DNA from: a virus
UHGV virus genome: UHGV-0126495
DNA length: 19,147 nucleotides
Direction: 5' to 3' (one strand)
In this document: piece after piece, positions 1,834 to 7,682 of the stretch
Position numbering within the stretch: position 1 is the first letter of the stretch
Layout: each line of letters starts with the position of its first letter
Translations under genes and position numbers: made by a program
The notes under the pieces: generated by a model
Told to the model about the DNA's origin: nothing
Databases searched by the model: none
What the model saw: the letters and a program-made list of their open reading frames with translations, nothing else

Positions 1834-2931
1834 TTAGAACTGGTAAACCATACCGACAGCAACAATATCGTCGGTGTTTATACCAAGACCTCTGGTGAAA
1901 TCATTTTTGTCAAGCAGGTTGATTTTGTAATCAACGAAAGTAGACATATTTTTGTTGAAGTAATAGGTTGCGCCTACATCAACATATTTAACTAAGTCTT
2001 GATCGCCCCATACTCCGAGATCTTTACCTTTAGATTGCAGGTAAGCCACGGACGGACGCAGCCCAAAATCGAACTGATATTGTGCAACAGCCTCAACGTT
2101 CTGAGCTTTATTAGCGACGAAGCGATCAGCAAATACCGTCATATTCTGGGTTTCAGAATAGGTAGTGGCCAAGTAAATGTTGTTAGCGTCATATTTCAGA
2201 CCAGCGGCCCAAACTTCTGCATTTTTACCGGAAGCAAATACTCCAGGAAGAACTTTCCCTAGATTAACTTGAGTGTCGGTACGGTCAGATTTCGCATAAG
2301 TTGCACCAATACCGAATCCTTCGTATTCATAGGTAGCAGAGAAACCGAAGCCATCACCGTTACCTTCGGTATAGTTATCGAGATCGCTACGATCGTTTTT
2401 GCCTTGGTACTGAGCAGCAAAGTTCAGACCATCAACCAGACCGAAGAAGTCGTTATTACGGTAAGTTGCAACACCAGTTGCACGCTGAGTCATGAATACG
2501 TCGGTTTGAGTCCAAGTATCACCACCGAATTCTGGCAGAACGTCAGTCCACGCACCGATGTCGTATGCTACACCGTAGTTACGGCCATAATCGATGGAGC
2601 CGTAGTCACCGAATTTCAGGCCAGCGAAGGCAAGACGGGTTTTATCTTTGGAAGAACCTTGAGATTCAGCACGGTTGCCTTTGAATTCATATTCCCACTG
2701 ACCGAAACCAGTCAGTTGATCATTGATTTGGGTTTCGCCTTTGAAGCCCAGACGAGCATAAGTTTTGTCACCATCGTGTTTATCGTTAGAGGAGAAGTAG
2801 TGCTTGGCATTAACTTTTCCGTACAGATCCAGTTTGTTGCTGTCTTTGTTATAAATCTCTGCTGCCTGAGCAGACATCGCCATTAATACTGACGCAGCTA
2901 CAGCAGAGATTGCCACTGTTAATTTTTTCAT
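1834..2931 (-). CDS. nmpC: outer membrane porin, OmpC/NmpC/Lc family (prophage-borne lysogenic conversion porin)
   Basis: 365-aa minus-strand ORF with signal peptide [23 protein letters not shown], mature N-terminus AEIYNKD and C-terminal ...VYQF typical of general porins; recalled as very close to E. coli NmpC / phage PA-2 Lc. AGGA 7 nt upstream of the ATG. Convergent with Q, as in DLP12. Confidence 0.9.
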
Positions 2932-3723: not shown

Positions 3724-4770
3724 ATGGCCAATACTGTAAAAATATCCAGTTGTGAGTTAATCAACGCTGATTGCCTGGAATTTATCCAGACCTTACCGGA
3801 AAACTCTGTCGATCTGATAGTCACAGACCCGCCATATTTTAAAGTGAAGCCCGAGGGCTGGGATAACCAGTGGAAGGGCGACGATGATTATCTGAAATGG
3901 CTGGATCAGTGTCTGGCGCAATTCTGGCGGGTACTGAAGCCTGCCGGAAGTCTTTATCTGTTCTGTGGTCATCGCCTGGCATCTGACACCGAAATCATGA
4001 TGCGTGAACGCTTTAATGTGCTGAACCACATTATCTGGGCGAAGCCGTACGGACGCTGGAACGGGTGTAATAAGGAAAGTCTGCGGGCGTATTTTCCGGC
4101 AACAGAACGCATTCTGTTTGCTGAACATTATCAGGGGCCATACCAGCCCAAAAATGACGGCTATGCGGCAAAGGGGCGCGAGCTTAAGCAGCACGTCATG
4201 GCCCCGCTGATTTCTTACTTTCGTGATGCGCGTGAATCACTGGGAATAACGTCAAAACAGATAGCGGAAGCCACCGGAAAGAAAAACATGGCTTCGCACT
4301 GGTTTGGTATCAGTCAGTGGCAGTTGCCGAACGAAGGCGATTATCTGAAATTACAGGCGTTGTTTGCGCGTGTTGCAGCAGAAAAACATCAACGAGGGGA
4401 ACTGGAAAAGCCACACCACCAGCTGGTCAGCACATACAGTGAACTGAACCGGCAATATGCCAGTCTGCTGAAGGAGTACAAATCCCTGCGGCGTTATTTT
4501 TCCGTATCGGCTGCCGTTCCGTATACGGATGTCTGGACGCACAAGCCTGTGCAGTATTACCCCGGCAAACATCCCTGTGAGAAACCGGCGGATATGTTGC
4601 GTCAGATAATTACCGCCAGCAGCCATCCGGGAGATTTGGTCGCTGATTTTTTTATGGGGTCGGGGTCAACAATAAAAGCAGCATTATCGCTGGGAAGGCG
4701 TGCAATAGGTGTGGAACTGGAAGAAGATAGATTTAACCAGACTGTAATTGAAATAAAAAATAATCGTTAA
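3724..4770 (+). CDS. orphan DNA methyltransferase, beta-class amino-methyltransferase (probably N6-adenine; N4-cytosine not excluded)
   Basis: 348-aa ORF with motif IV DPPY at nt 3826-3837 near the N-terminus and motif I FFMGSGST at nt 4648-4671 near the C-terminus (IV before I is the beta-class permutation). No restriction endonuclease candidate nearby. Confidence 0.88.
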   Translation: MANTVKISSCELINADCLEFIQTLPENSVDLIVTDPPYFKVKPEGWDNQWKGDDDYLKWLDQCLAQFWRVLKPAGSLYLFCGHRLASDTEIMMRERFNVLNHIIWAKPYGRWNGCNKESLRAYFPATERILFAEHYQGPYQPKNDGYAAKGRELKQHVMAPLISYFRDARESLGITSKQIAEATGKKNMASHWFGISQWQLPNEGDYLKLQALFARVAAEKHQRGELEKPHHQLVSTYSELNRQYASLLKEYKSLRRYFSVSAAVPYTDVWTHKPVQYYPGKHPCEKPADMLRQIITASSHPGDLVADFFMGSGSTIKAALSLGRRAIGVELEEDRFNQTVIEIKNNR

Positions 4771-5803: not shown

Positions 5804-5829
5804 GGGCCGCTGGTGGCCCTTTTTTATTT
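5804..5829 (+). terminator. intrinsic terminator immediately upstream of the lysis cassette
   Basis: GGGCC-gctggt-GGCCC hairpin followed by TTTTTTATTT; ends about 15 nt before the AGGAGA ribosome-binding site of the 5845 ORF. Confidence 0.6.
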
Positions 5830-5844: not shown

Positions 5845-6237
5845 ATGTCTGAACCCTTGTCCGGTTCCGGCACGGCTGCGGCGCTCGGCGGGGCGACGGT
5901 ATTCGGGCTGTTTACCGGAACGGATTTCGGGATTGTGTTTGGTGCGTTCGCCGGGGCGTTATTTGTGGCAACGATGCCGCAGGCGCTTTCAGCCTGGCGT
6001 GTGGTGGCGCATTTTCTTGTGTCGTTCATTATCGGCGTGCTGGGCGCAGAGGTTCTGGCGTCCTGGCTGGTAAAGCATACAGGGTTTGACGGTGCACCTG
6101 TTGACGCATTGTGTGCAGTACTGGTGTCAGTGGTGTCGGTGAAGATTCTGTCGTTCATCCACCAGCAGGATATCGCATCACTGGTGTCCGGTCTGTTCTC
6201 CCGCCTGCGGGGCGGAGGAGGCGGCAATGTTAAGTAA
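5845..6237 (+). CDS. putative holin (multi-TM small membrane protein, 131 aa)
   Basis: ATG at 5845 preceded by AGGAGA (5832-5837); the longer listed start at 5779 would read through the terminator. Three to four hydrophobic helices and a charged Gly-rich C-tail; first gene of a lysis-type cluster ending in an endolysin. Confidence 0.55.
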   Translation: MSEPLSGSGTAAALGGATVFGLFTGTDFGIVFGAFAGALFVATMPQALSAWRVVAHFLVSFIIGVLGAEVLASWLVKHTGFDGAPVDALCAVLVSVVSVKILSFIHQQDIASLVSGLFSRLRGGGGGNVK

Positions 6238-6502
6238 CCTTCCCGGAGTGCTGAATGTGGCGTTATGTACGGTTATCGTGCTGACGCTCTTTTTTTATCG
6301 TCGTCGTGACTCCAGACACAAACCGCTGATGTCATGGCTGGCCTGGCTGCTGATGCTGCTTTATGGCTTTGCTCCACTCAGCTATCTGTGTGGTCGCCCG
6401 TTAGCAACGGGCTGGCTGGAAGTGTTTTTTAATCTGCTGTTCTGCGTGTTGGTGATACGCGCACGCGGGAACGTCACAAAAATCTTTCCATTGTTGAGGT
6501 GA
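6227..6502 (+). CDS. small three-TM membrane protein (second lysis-cassette component; holin/antiholin-like)
   Basis: ATG at 6227 preceded by GGAGGAGG; overlaps the 3' end of the previous ORF by 11 nt and ends at the endolysin start. Three hydrophobic segments. Confidence 0.5.
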   Translation: MLSNLPGVLNVALCTVIVLTLFFYRRRDSRHKPLMSWLAWLLMLLYGFAPLSYLCGRPLATGWLEVFFNLLFCVLVIRARGNVTKIFPLLR

Positions 6503-6504
6503 AT

Positions 6505-6882
6505 ATGCCGGGTAAATTCAGATTCAGCCGTCGGAGCGAGAAAAATCTGGAGGGCGTCAAACCACAACTGGTTGCTGTCGTTCGCCGTGCCCTTGAGCTG
6601 ACGGAAGTTGATTTCGGTATTACGGAAGGCCTGCGCAGTAAGTATCGCCAGAAACAGCTGGTCGCGGAAGGGAAAAGCCAGACCATGAACAGCCGCCACC
6701 TGACAGGTGATGCGGTGGATGTTGTGGCCTACATTGGCAGCCAGGTGTCATGGGACTGGCCTCTGTACGAGAAAATAGCGCAGGCATTTAAGCAGGCTGC
6801 CGCAGAGCTGGGAACTGCCATCGAATGGGGCGGTGAGTGGCGGTCGTTAAAGGACGGGCCTCACTTTCAGCTGAAACGATAA
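6505..6882 (+). CDS. endolysin, peptidase M15 family (L-alanyl-D-glutamate endopeptidase type)
   Basis: ATG at 6505 preceded by GAGGTGA; the listed GTG start is 6499. Motifs SRHLTGDAVD and DGPHFQL match the zinc-binding signature of M15 peptidases such as phage T5 endolysin. About 125 aa, no signal peptide. Confidence 0.85.
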   Translation: MPGKFRFSRRSEKNLEGVKPQLVAVVRRALELTEVDFGITEGLRSKYRQKQLVAEGKSQTMNSRHLTGDAVDVVAYIGSQVSWDWPLYEKIAQAFKQAAAELGTAIEWGGEWRSLKDGPHFQLKR

Positions 6883-6888
6883 ATAAGG

Positions 6889-6921
6889 CAAAGCCCCGGT
6901 TGTTGGAGCAATCGGGGCTTT
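6889..6921 (+). terminator. candidate hairpin/terminator after the endolysin gene
   Basis: 8-bp stem AAGCCCCG / CGGGGCTT with a large loop, followed by TGTGTTTAT; weak T-tract. Confidence 0.3.
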
Positions 6922-7011
6922 GTGTTTATGGATTCATTTTGTGAATGCGCATGGGGATCATTCATGCCAGTAAAGCCTAACACGACGAAAGATAAATTTG
7001 GAGATGATCTG

Positions 7012-7161
7012 ATGATAAAAGCAGAAACCACCCCGCAGTGGGCTGATGATGCCGCAAAAATCATCGCGGTATGCCGGGGCATCAGACACATACTGACGCC
7101 AGTTGCATGGATTATTTGTACCGCACTGGTTGCATACACAACAATTTATTTAAACAGATGA
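7012..7161 (+). CDS. hypothetical small C-terminally anchored membrane protein
   Basis: ATG at 7012 preceded by GGAGA (7000-7004); alternative starts GTG 6922 and ATG 6964. C-terminal hydrophobic helix ILTPVAWIICTALVAYTTIYL. Stop overlaps the ATG of an unlisted 28-codon ORF (7158..7244). Confidence 0.3.
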   Translation: MIKAETTPQWADDAAKIIAVCRGIRHILTPVAWIICTALVAYTTIYLNR

Positions 7162-7245
7162 GTGCTGATTTTATTCGGGCGGTGGCTTTTGCAATTCGCC
7201 TTGTGGCGGTCGCTGTTCTGATTTGGGCTGTGCGTTGGTGGTGAT

Positions 7246-7479
7246 ATGAGCCGAAAACACTGGACACACAGAATGCCGCGAACGGAGGCGAAATGGGCAC
7301 TGGTAGCGATACTGGTGCCTTTTTTATTGGTGGGGTGCGTTAGCCTGGATAAGGCGCGTCAGCTTTTCGATACCGCGTCTCAGGTCTGCCAGATTATTGA
7401 TGGCGTTCGGCGGTGTTCGCAGAACTGCTCACCAACATTACAGCAGCCCTTCAGCCGAGGGGCTGCAATAATGCTTTAG
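7246..7479 (+). CDS. putative small lipoprotein (possible o-spanin-like lysis component)
   Basis: ATG at 7246 preceded by GGTGGTGA. Signal peptide with lipobox LLVG-C, mature part about 46 aa with four Cys. Lies in the +1 frame relative to the upstream 28-codon TM ORF. Confidence 0.4.
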   Translation: MSRKHWTHRMPRTEAKWALVAILVPFLLVGCVSLDKARQLFDTASQVCQIIDGVRRCSQNCSPTLQQPFSRGAAIML

Positions 7480-7682
7480 TTGTCTTTCATAAATCCTTTA
7501 ATGACCCATCCCACAAGCCTGGTGATGCTGTACACCAACAAGGCAATTATCAGAGATACAAGGATATCAAACAGTGAGAATCCTTGCGTATCCGTTGTTG
7601 AAAATAAAAGACTAAAGATGAACACCAGAATGGCCAACAGAATACCTACCCGGTGAAAGCCTTTAGAAATCATGTTTTTCAT
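7476..7682 (-). CDS. hypothetical small two-TM membrane protein (68 aa) at the bor-equivalent position
   Basis: Minus-strand ORF with GGAGG 4 nt upstream of its ATG and a candidate extended -10 promoter (TGtTAAAAT) further upstream. Two hydrophobic helices, no lipobox. Converges on and overlaps the 7246..7479 ORF by 4 nt. Confidence 0.5.
   Translation of the reverse strand: MKNMISKGFHRVGILLAILVFIFSLLFSTTDTQGFSLFDILVSLIIALLVYSITRLVGWVIKGFMKDN

Follow-up and report, generated by a model that had tools for sequence, protein, structure and literature searches.

The DNA analysed here, called the window throughout, is a stretch of 19,147 nucleotides from the virus genome UHGV-0126495. By sequence comparison the window is a phiP27-like Escherichia coli prophage, and positions 5845 to 7479 form its lysis cassette, part of the late operon of a temperate phage of the phiP27 type: the segment 6880–7750 is 99.4% identical to a prophage of E. 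coli strain ETEC1738, and the lysis genes are 91–93% identical to those of phages phiP27, phiSTEC1575-Stx2k and vB_Apl-pPE4. The cassette consists of two holin-family genes, an endolysin gene, two small open reading frames (ORFs A and B) and a gene for a small lipoprotein, as listed below. The lipoprotein is our main subject. It lies where other phages encode spanins, and we consider it plausible, with a probability of about 0.5, that it is an o-spanin-like outer-membrane disruptor that works without a partner.

5804–5829, + strand: terminator-like hairpin with a T-run, immediately before the ribosome-binding site of holin 1 (consensus scan; a weak fold, −10.8 kcal/mol, z −1.7).
5845–6237, + strand: holin-family protein 1, 130 amino acids, about three hydrophobic segments (PF16931 Phage_holin_8, E = 6.5e-23; phrog_198 holin, E = 3.4e-43).
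6227–6502, + strand: holin-family protein 2, 91 amino acids, three transmembrane helices (PF05449 Phage_holin_3_7, E = 1.2e-22; phrog_217, E = 1.8e-38).
6505–6882, + strand: predicted endolysin, an M15C L-alanyl-D-glutamate endopeptidase, 125 amino acids, soluble and without a signal sequence.
6886–6925, + strand: strong hairpin following the endolysin stop, on the left boundary of the insert with ORFs A and B (−27.7 kcal/mol, z −7.2).
7012–7161, + strand: ORF A, a 49-residue tail-anchored membrane protein with a C-terminal transmembrane helix.
7158–7244, + strand: ORF B, a 28-residue protein with a single transmembrane helix, ending RWW (RefSeq WP_047628529.1 in the near-identical ETEC1738 prophage).
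7246–7479, + strand: small lipoprotein, putatively of the outer membrane, in the +1 frame relative to ORF B (phrog_7528, E = 2.8e-36).
7295–7329, + strand: terminator-like hairpin with a T-run, found by scan within the signal-peptide codons of the lipoprotein (residues 17–28); 11 base pairs including three G-U pairs.

All six ORFs reported by the first-pass annotation, a reading of the letters and ORFs of the window, are present, except that holin 1 has 130 rather than 131 residues. The three small ORFs, described there as tightly coupled, are real coding sequence according to the substitution pattern in each frame.

Residues 1–60 of the lipoprotein match positions 1 to 60 of the 60-position profile of phrog_7528, a 60-residue phage protein, making it a full-length member, and among the families tested phrog_7528 is the only one to which sequence comparison assigns it. 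The family core is thus codons 1–60 (7246–7425). For comparison, we gathered 86 loci by similarity to the lipoprotein, among them phiP27 itself (NC_003356, locus L001); in 77 of these the gene has exactly 60 codons followed by TGA. In the window codon 61 (7426–7428) is TGC where relatives have TGA, and the lost stop adds 17 residues, including an extra cysteine, to give a protein of 77 amino acids. The ETEC1738 copy shares this TGC, and the gene is unannotated there in RefSeq. Three kinds of stop-loss extension, that of the window included, occur among the copies and affect about 10% of them, which suggests that the C-terminus tolerates additions. The 60-codon core of the window allele is intact and 93% identical to other family members. 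The frame given in the original prediction was right; its length reflects the stop-loss allele and not the family.

The signal peptide covers residues 1–30 and ends in the lipobox LLVGC, with Cys31 as the predicted lipidated residue and valine at position +2. Cys31 is invariant, and at +2 every member seen has V, A, T, S, G or E and never aspartate, so that the lipoprotein has both the lipobox and the non-Asp +2 residue for outer-membrane sorting that are expected of an o-spanin. It also has the periplasmic cysteines expected of a spanin, for which intermolecular bonding is a prediction: Cys48 and Cys57 are invariant in the close-family alignment, and across the distant subfamilies, of these two, only Cys48 remains an invariant column, with a second cysteine in every listed member, offset by one column in some. 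Members are approximately 55–65 residues long and begin with a long basic stretch, followed by the lipobox and a proline-free mature part with two cysteines 8–10 residues apart. The mature part has 29–32 residues in the family and 46 in the window allele. A helical projection of it is amphipathic, with a hydrophobic moment of about 0.5 that exceeds most shuffled sequences, and between subfamilies the net charge of the mature part varies from −4 to +3. The only hydrophobic segment of the protein is residues 17–35, corresponding to the signal peptide, and the C-terminus is polar.

The gene is under purifying selection, with a ratio of non-synonymous to synonymous substitution rates (dN/dS) of 0.18 over 55 distinct sequences and 0.155 in the mature part. 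Of the 165 fetched copies, some of them from loci that are re-fetches of the same contigs, 164 contain no internal stop. The GC content is 0.546, like that of the late genes and unlike that of the neighbouring moron-like gene (0.386). A search of 5.8 billion proteins returned 148 clusters at 90% identity; those with an organism name are all from Enterobacterales (the genera Escherichia, Citrobacter, Salmonella, Cronobacter and Yersinia), a few being named just "bacteriophage". An exhaustive profile search of 1.84 billion representatives gave 22 clusters at 50% identity, all of them small lipoproteins of the same kind, and reached no characterised family. Among 5426 complete E. coli genomes, 361 carry the gene. 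The first-pass annotation had suggested that the cassette might be degenerate; we reject this, given the purifying selection on the lipoprotein, ORF A and ORF B and the recurrence of the layout in hundreds of prophages.

The usual layout in the 86 loci is holin 1, holin 2, endolysin, lipoprotein, and in most of them the lipoprotein ATG lies 5–15 nucleotides after the endolysin stop, on the same strand. Holin 1 is present in 75 of the loci and holin 2 in 80; the endolysin is of the M15 class in 55 and of the GH108 class in 30. In the distant subfamilies (a profile search of genome contigs yielded three loci only), the lipoprotein stands at the same position behind a lambda-S-type Phage_holin_3_1 holin and a GH108, M15 or CHAP-domain enzyme. 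The genes that follow are also variable, being HNH/terminase, ParB-like or lambda-type packaging genes. Because holins, endolysins and downstream genes all vary, we conclude that the lipoprotein gene closes a mobile lysis module and is tied to none of them; phages with different virion and packaging modules share it together with the lysis genes, and it does not accompany tail-fibre or receptor-binding genes. An intact Rz/Rz1 pair (locus L005, an E. coli prophage) or an i-/o-spanin pair (phage HK639) is found at the same place, and on this comparison of gene orders the lipoprotein occupies the spanin slot. We note that in Rac-SA53, the LT-IIa prophage, LT-II enterotoxin genes directly follow a dual-holin and GH108 endolysin arrangement, that is, they sit in the slot of the lipoprotein; the stretch examined (L166, 2119–4556) contains neither the lipoprotein nor an annotated spanin.

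A two-component spanin needs a cognate i-spanin, with an N-terminal transmembrane helix and a mostly helical periplasmic domain, whose gene lies within, overlaps or adjoins that of the o-spanin, and we found none with the lipoprotein. We scanned for i-spanin features, defined as an N-terminal transmembrane helix followed by at least 45 further (periplasmic) residues. Within 4.5 kb of the lipoprotein in the 86 loci the scan found nothing recurrent at a fixed position or otherwise plausible, and it found nothing plausible in the whole 49-kb ETEC1738 prophage or in the complete phiSTEC1575-Stx2k genome. The sequences of Rz, Rz1 and the HK639 spanins were undetected in every locus with an intact lipoprotein. 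The mature protein is also too short to satisfy the expectation that the components together span the periplasm, having 29–32 residues (46 in the window allele) and no partner to add to them. The statement of the first-pass annotation that no intact i-spanin is present therefore holds, since none is recognisable at the locus or elsewhere in the near-identical prophage.

The arrangement, which that annotation thought possibly novel, is not new to the literature: it is the phiP27 cassette, and the lipoprotein has already been classed as an o-spanin. Kongari et al. (2018; PMC6139136) list phiP27 as having a "separated" two-component spanin, the shortest of their set at 62 residues combined, with the o-spanin at 20706–20861 and the i-spanin at 20348–20542. 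Their o-spanin is the lipoprotein described here, whose gene spans 20679–20861 in the record; it is unannotated in that record, where L32 is called in an overlapping wrong frame. Their i-spanin is a TTG-start ORF (L001 4281–4475, + strand) that lies wholly inside, and antisense to, an ORF of 90 codons on the minus strand (4265–4537). The minus-strand product matches phrog_36812 end to end (E = 5e-20), whereas the plus-strand ORF has no match. In the sole other locus with the 90-residue gene (46% protein identity), the minus frame is intact and the plus frame is interrupted, and the published i-spanin ORF is absent from 84 of the 86 loci, the window included. We therefore reject the assignment on the grounds that the ORF is not conserved and is antisense to a phrog_36812 gene: it looks like an artefact, which would leave the lipoprotein without a known partner. 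Comparison with curated spanins, proposed as a check in the first-pass annotation, does retrieve the lipoprotein, but with a listed partner that looks like an antisense artefact. We found no experimental work on phiP27-type lysis in the literature covered, which did not include the original description of phiP27; a paper on Stx2e phages (PMC12571312) treats only a holin.

The remaining local candidates for an inner-membrane component are ORFs A and B. Both are present as first described, ORF A tail-anchored at its C-terminus and ORF B an unlisted 28-codon ORF with a single transmembrane helix, whose ATG overlaps the ORF A stop (ATGA) and which ends 1 nucleotide before the lipoprotein ATG. The ratio of non-synonymous to synonymous polymorphism (pN/pS) for ORF A is 0.17 in its own frame, compared with 1.15 and 2.18 in the other two, and for ORF B is 0.37–0.46, compared with more than 1 in the other frames. 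We prefer the ORF A start at 7012 over the RefSeq start at 6964, which would give 65 residues, because homology to other prophages begins at about 7009; a GGAG lies 9 nucleotides upstream of the 7012 ATG. Similarly, the 57-residue ORF at 7071–7244 in the mechanical listing is unsupported upstream of 7158, where it overlaps ORF A and where the changes are silent for ORF A but alter the product of the 57-residue ORF. ORF B matches phrog_4493 (E = 2.5e-6), with its 37-residue relatives reaching E = 7e-16; Pfam, NCBIfam and PADLOC scans of the small ORFs gave nothing significant.

Of the 86 loci, 30 have ORF B, placed between endolysin and lipoprotein, and 56 lack it; ORF A is found in only six. 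In L005, a homologue of ORF A (96% identical) and ORF B, both intact, lie directly upstream of a complete Rz/Rz1, consisting of a 155-residue Rz with an embedded 61-residue Rz1, and the junction to ORF B is 1 nucleotide as in the window. ORF B is likewise directly upstream of a canonical Rz in GER2-type Shiga toxin (Stx) prophages. Since the same ORFs precede an intact Rz/Rz1 in other prophages, they are not spanin remnants. In particular, ORF B as a truncated i-spanin can be ruled out, as it is intact beside a full Rz/Rz1 and missing from most lipoprotein loci, and for the same reasons the short transmembrane ORF and the lipoprotein do not make up the Rz/Rz1-like architecture suggested originally. 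From their distribution we conclude that ORFs A and B are a mobile pair of accessory genes inserted between the endolysin and the lipoprotein.

Tail-anchored ORFs related to ORFs A and B (phrog_4493, 1115, 3246 and 12997) are also found in lambdoid and Stx prophages, where they separate the lysozyme gene from Rz/Rz1, in some cases as two pairs in tandem, and always stop 1 nucleotide before the ATG of the next gene (L005 2187–2736; L167 1130–1282; window 7012–7244). They may be unrecognised accessory lysis factors. A possible analogue is Lcc6 of the Shewanella phage LambdaSo (bioRxiv 10.1101/2024.01.23.576932), a small (65-residue) transmembrane protein that acts as an extra lysis factor, although it is encoded outside the lysis cassette and the likeness is one of description and not of sequence comparison.

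The GER2-type prophages, with the order S, R, ORF B, Rz/Rz1, also carry the lipoprotein gene, in a copy interrupted by four in-frame stops within the stretch that aligns with the 60 codons, one of them at the position of the start codon. These decayed copies (L167 2489–2680; L168 and L169, approximately 2470–2700) lie downstream of an intact S-R-Rz/Rz1 and a lipopolysaccharide heptose-phosphatase gene. Decay of the lipoprotein where Rz/Rz1 exists is a hint that the two are redundant. About 46 E. coli records match at 60–80% identity and may belong to the same lineage.

Taken together, the spanin position, the coupling to the endolysin, the modular spread, the purifying selection, the late-gene GC content, the absence of a spanin and the decay beside spanins point to a role at the outer membrane. 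Lysis might then proceed as follows. From what is known of their families, the two holin-family proteins (two holins, or a holin/antiholin pair) would permeabilise the inner membrane, releasing the cytoplasmic M15C L-Ala-D-Glu endopeptidase to degrade the peptidoglycan. The lipoprotein would be exported, lipidated at Cys31 and, having no Asp at +2, sorted to the inner leaflet of the outer membrane, where it would present a proline-free amphipathic helix of about 30 residues with two conserved cysteines and act without a phage-encoded inner-membrane partner. Because it cannot bridge the periplasm, the fusion of inner to outer membrane proposed for spanins would not be possible, and the protein would need to destabilise the outer membrane either directly, at the inner face, or by way of a component of the host envelope. 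After loss of the cell wall the protein might first form disulfide-linked oligomers; for the disruption itself the options are insertion of the oligomer into the inner leaflet, activation of phospholipase A as by colicin lysis proteins, or interference with a host envelope machine. The wider proposal, that the 60-residue family is a third kind of phage outer-membrane disruptor, lipid-anchored and replacing Rz/Rz1 in phiP27-like and related prophages, is made more tentatively, and we rate it at somewhat less than an even chance.

Several points weigh against such a role. The lipoprotein has no detectable relation to a characterised lysis protein in Pfam, NCBIfam or PADLOC, and its proposed function in lysis is drawn from sequence and gene order. 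The AlphaFold model is one long helix of low confidence (pLDDT 60). A simple cationic membrane-active peptide does not fit the net charge of the mature part, −4 to +3, and we have ruled that model out on this ground. The stop-loss extensions in roughly a tenth of copies, including that in the window, could mean that the C-terminus is under relaxed constraint. Since the three records of the Rz/Rz1 lineage have an identical allele, the decay there happened once and was inherited, and does not amount to independent replicates. The loci were collected through similarity to the lipoprotein, which biases them towards intact copies. Finally, some phages may need no dedicated outer-membrane disruptor, and a gene linked to the endolysin could serve another envelope role.

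This last possibility can be made specific: the lipoprotein may be cargo unrelated to lysis, either an envelope modifier or a superinfection-exclusion or receptor-masking protein such as T5 Llp or Cor, in phages that are truly spanin-less. Llp and Cor are small phage lipoproteins with disulfides that are known as exclusion factors, and this precedent is in favour of the idea, as are the lack of homology to any lysis protein, the terminator-like hairpin inside the gene and the fact that the ends of lysis cassettes are common cargo sites, the LT-II toxin genes of Rac-SA53 being an example. Against it, there is no separate promoter or spacer, the start following the endolysin stop by 5–15 nucleotides in most loci; the GC content matches the late genes; the gene moves with the lysis genes and not with tail-fibre or receptor-binding genes; and a copy has decayed in a lineage with Rz/Rz1. 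We regard the cargo explanation as improbable, but as one to be taken seriously. It is less likely again that the lipoprotein is a genuine o-spanin acting by bridging and fusion with an inner-membrane partner that has escaped recognition, be it a holin loop, ORF B, a distant phage gene or a host protein. The lipobox, the conserved periplasmic cysteines and the spanin position would all fit, and Kongari et al. (2018) did class the protein as the o-spanin of a "separated" pair; but the partner in that pair is the apparent antisense artefact discussed above, scans of two whole phage genomes gave no candidate, and 29–32 mature residues are too few to cross the periplasm. In 30 of the 86 loci translational coupling joins ORF B to the lipoprotein, yet ORF B has essentially no extramembrane domain, is missing from the other 56 and also precedes complete Rz/Rz1 genes, while the unrelated holin families that accompany the lipoprotein mean that no specific holin can be the partner.

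Two further explanations carry little weight. The lipoprotein could act like a bacteriocin-release (colicin lysis) protein, accumulating and activating the outer-membrane phospholipase A so that the outer membrane becomes leaky; this is a sub-case of the partner-less disruptor and not an exclusive rival to it. In its favour, precursor size and mature length (29–32 residues) are similar to those of colicin lysis proteins, and the lipobox, LLVGC, is shared with the ColE1 lysis protein. One family member also has a sub-threshold match to Lysis_col (PF02402; E = 0.072, below the gathering cut-off), which probably reflects the signal peptide; the other 12 of the 13 members have none, the window protein has no match at E ≤ 1, and no motif is common to the mature sequences and the colicin lysis proteins. 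We consider this mode very unlikely. Least credible is that the copy in the window is decaying and that the prophage no longer functions in the outer-membrane step. The allele has lost its stop and gained 17 residues with an extra cysteine, RefSeq does not annotate the gene in ETEC1738, and that prophage (49 kb) has an insertion sequence (IS) and a frameshifted integrase. Nevertheless, the core of 60 codons is intact and as similar to the family as stated above, the three independent kinds of stop-loss in relatives suggest that C-terminal additions are tolerated, and all other lysis genes are intact. We retain the partner-less disruptor as our preferred explanation. The earlier interpretation of the cassette is partly supported, and its suggestion of a novel means of disrupting the outer membrane is plausible.

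Comparison with characterised systems shows where the lipoprotein resembles them and where it departs from them. The closest relatives of the cassette are in phiP27 and phiSTEC1575-Stx2k, whose holin 1, holin 2 and M15 endolysin are 94–99% identical in protein sequence to those of the window; the values for vB_Apl-pPE4 are lower, at only 80% for holin 1 and 90% for holin 2. In all three phages the lipoprotein is 87–90% identical and the gene order is the same, except that phiP27 has an unrelated minus-strand gene where the window has ORFs A and B, and does not share the stop-loss of the window allele. HK639 has homologous dual holins (holin 2 is 38% identical) followed by an endolysin and the genes for the outer-membrane step, in the same order as the window, but these are a 91-residue i-spanin with an N-terminal transmembrane helix and an overlapping 75-residue o-spanin, where the window has only the lipoprotein. 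Like the o-spanins of the lambda Rz1 type, the lipoprotein is a small outer-membrane lipoprotein (by prediction) encoded at the end of the cassette, with conserved periplasmic cysteines; Rz1 is a 40-residue proline-rich unstructured chain, whereas the mature lipoprotein is a 29–32-residue proline-free predicted amphipathic helix. It differs from two-component o-spanins generally in having no cognate i-spanin that we could find and in being so short that a partner on the far side of the periplasm would be out of reach. Unimolecular spanins of the T1 gp11 type are similar in being single genes in the lysis cassette with an N-terminal lipoprotein signal, but are much longer and have a C-terminal transmembrane helix, which neither the 60-residue family nor the 77-residue window allele possesses. 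Colicin lysis proteins (PF02402) resemble it in precursor size, in a mature lipopeptide of about 30 residues and in an LLVGC-type lipobox; the lipoprotein is encoded in a phage holin-endolysin cassette and not in a colicin operon, and falls outside PF02402.

To our knowledge, the disruptin of phage phiKT is the only characterised alternative to spanins. This protein, phiKT gp28 (Holt et al., bioRxiv 10.1101/515445), is like the lipoprotein a small single component with an amphipathic helix, proposed or shown to stand in for spanins in a spanin-less phage. It is, however, cationic and not a lipoprotein, while the protein studied here is predicted to be lipid-anchored and carries a charge of −4 to +3, so that it cannot be counted as a disruptin, and the two have no sequence relation. 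According to Kongari et al. (2018; PMC6139136), 91 of 677 phages of Gram-negative hosts, or about one in seven, have no recognisable spanin. The lipoprotein is a concrete candidate in E. coli for the way in which such phages breach the outer membrane: a 60-codon gene, in the spanin slot, in a Shiga toxin phage. If it does work alone, it would represent a new, lipid-anchored route to outer-membrane failure, with a bearing on the release of Stx2e and Stx2k toxins and on pipelines for spanin annotation. The phiP27-like and related prophages that carry the gene bear Stx2e, Stx2k and other cargo, and are found in approximately 7% of complete E. coli genomes. Even if it does not, the spanin record of phiP27 is corrected, and ORFs A and B are seen to be accessory lysis-cassette genes shared with prophages of the Rz/Rz1 type.

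The two holin genes and the M15 endolysin, which had been considered non-canonical, are by sequence ordinary members of known families, and the matches agree with the original description of two overlapping membrane-protein genes (the overlap is 11 nucleotides) ahead of an M15 enzyme. Holin 1 scores 81.6 bits against Phage_holin_8 (cut-off 26.4) and holin 2 scores 80.1 bits against Phage_holin_3_7 (cut-off 25.4), which places both in these families; holin activity is a prediction. The endolysin belongs to PF13539 Peptidase_M15_4 (E = 6.4e-12; 46.3 bits, cut-off 25) and to phrog_465 (E = 5.5e-74), and matches the solved L-Ala-D-Glu endopeptidases in the PDB: 8q2g (E = 1e-42), ChiX (5opz, E = 3.5e-42) and that of T5 (2mxz, E = 4.8e-23). 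Its sequence contains H65-x6-D72 and H120, which are the likely zinc-binding residues of an M15 peptidase. The start at 6505 is that of RefSeq; there is an alternative GTG at 6499.

Of the hairpins listed above, the one at 5804–5829 is probably a late-operon terminator that is read through by Q-modified polymerase; a gene of the Q antiterminator family lies upstream in the near-identical ETEC1738 prophage. The segment 6886–6925 is absent where the lipoprotein starts 5–15 nucleotides after the endolysin stop, as in most relatives. The hairpin at 7295–7329 has a folding energy of −17.9 kcal/mol (z −4.1) on the plus strand, compared with −9.1 on the minus strand. Its synonymous sites are nearly invariant, with a synonymous polymorphism (pS) of 0.086 compared with 0.28–0.35 in the rest of the gene, which makes them three to four times more conserved, and the hairpin is kept even where the mature parts have diverged, in distant subfamilies. 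Possible roles are an attenuator or a terminator passed only by Q-modified polymerase, or a conserved recombination joint. A further stable hairpin at 7436–7470 on the plus strand (−23.4 kcal/mol, z −4.2) lies inside the 17-codon extension of the window allele, and relatives with the TGA have it just downstream of the gene; it is possibly the terminator of the cassette.

In the wider gene order, the cassette is preceded by the Q antiterminator, an ompC-like porin gene on the minus strand, a DNA methyltransferase, tRNA-Thr and tRNA-Gly, and is followed by a minus-strand ORF for a 68-residue protein with two transmembrane helices, an HNH endonuclease, the P27-type small terminase, the large terminase, and head and tail genes. 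The gene for the 68-residue protein (7476–7682, minus strand) converges on the lipoprotein gene and is the moron-like neighbour with a GC content of 0.386 referred to above. Its product has no family match except a weak one to the PADLOC "2TM effector" (E = 0.11), and is 61–100% identical in eight loci. The OmpC-like porin (1834–2931, minus strand), located between the Q antiterminator and the late genes, is full length at 365 residues and is named ompC in the ETEC1738 prophage; it is comparable to the Lc/NmpC porins, which are known prophage cargo.

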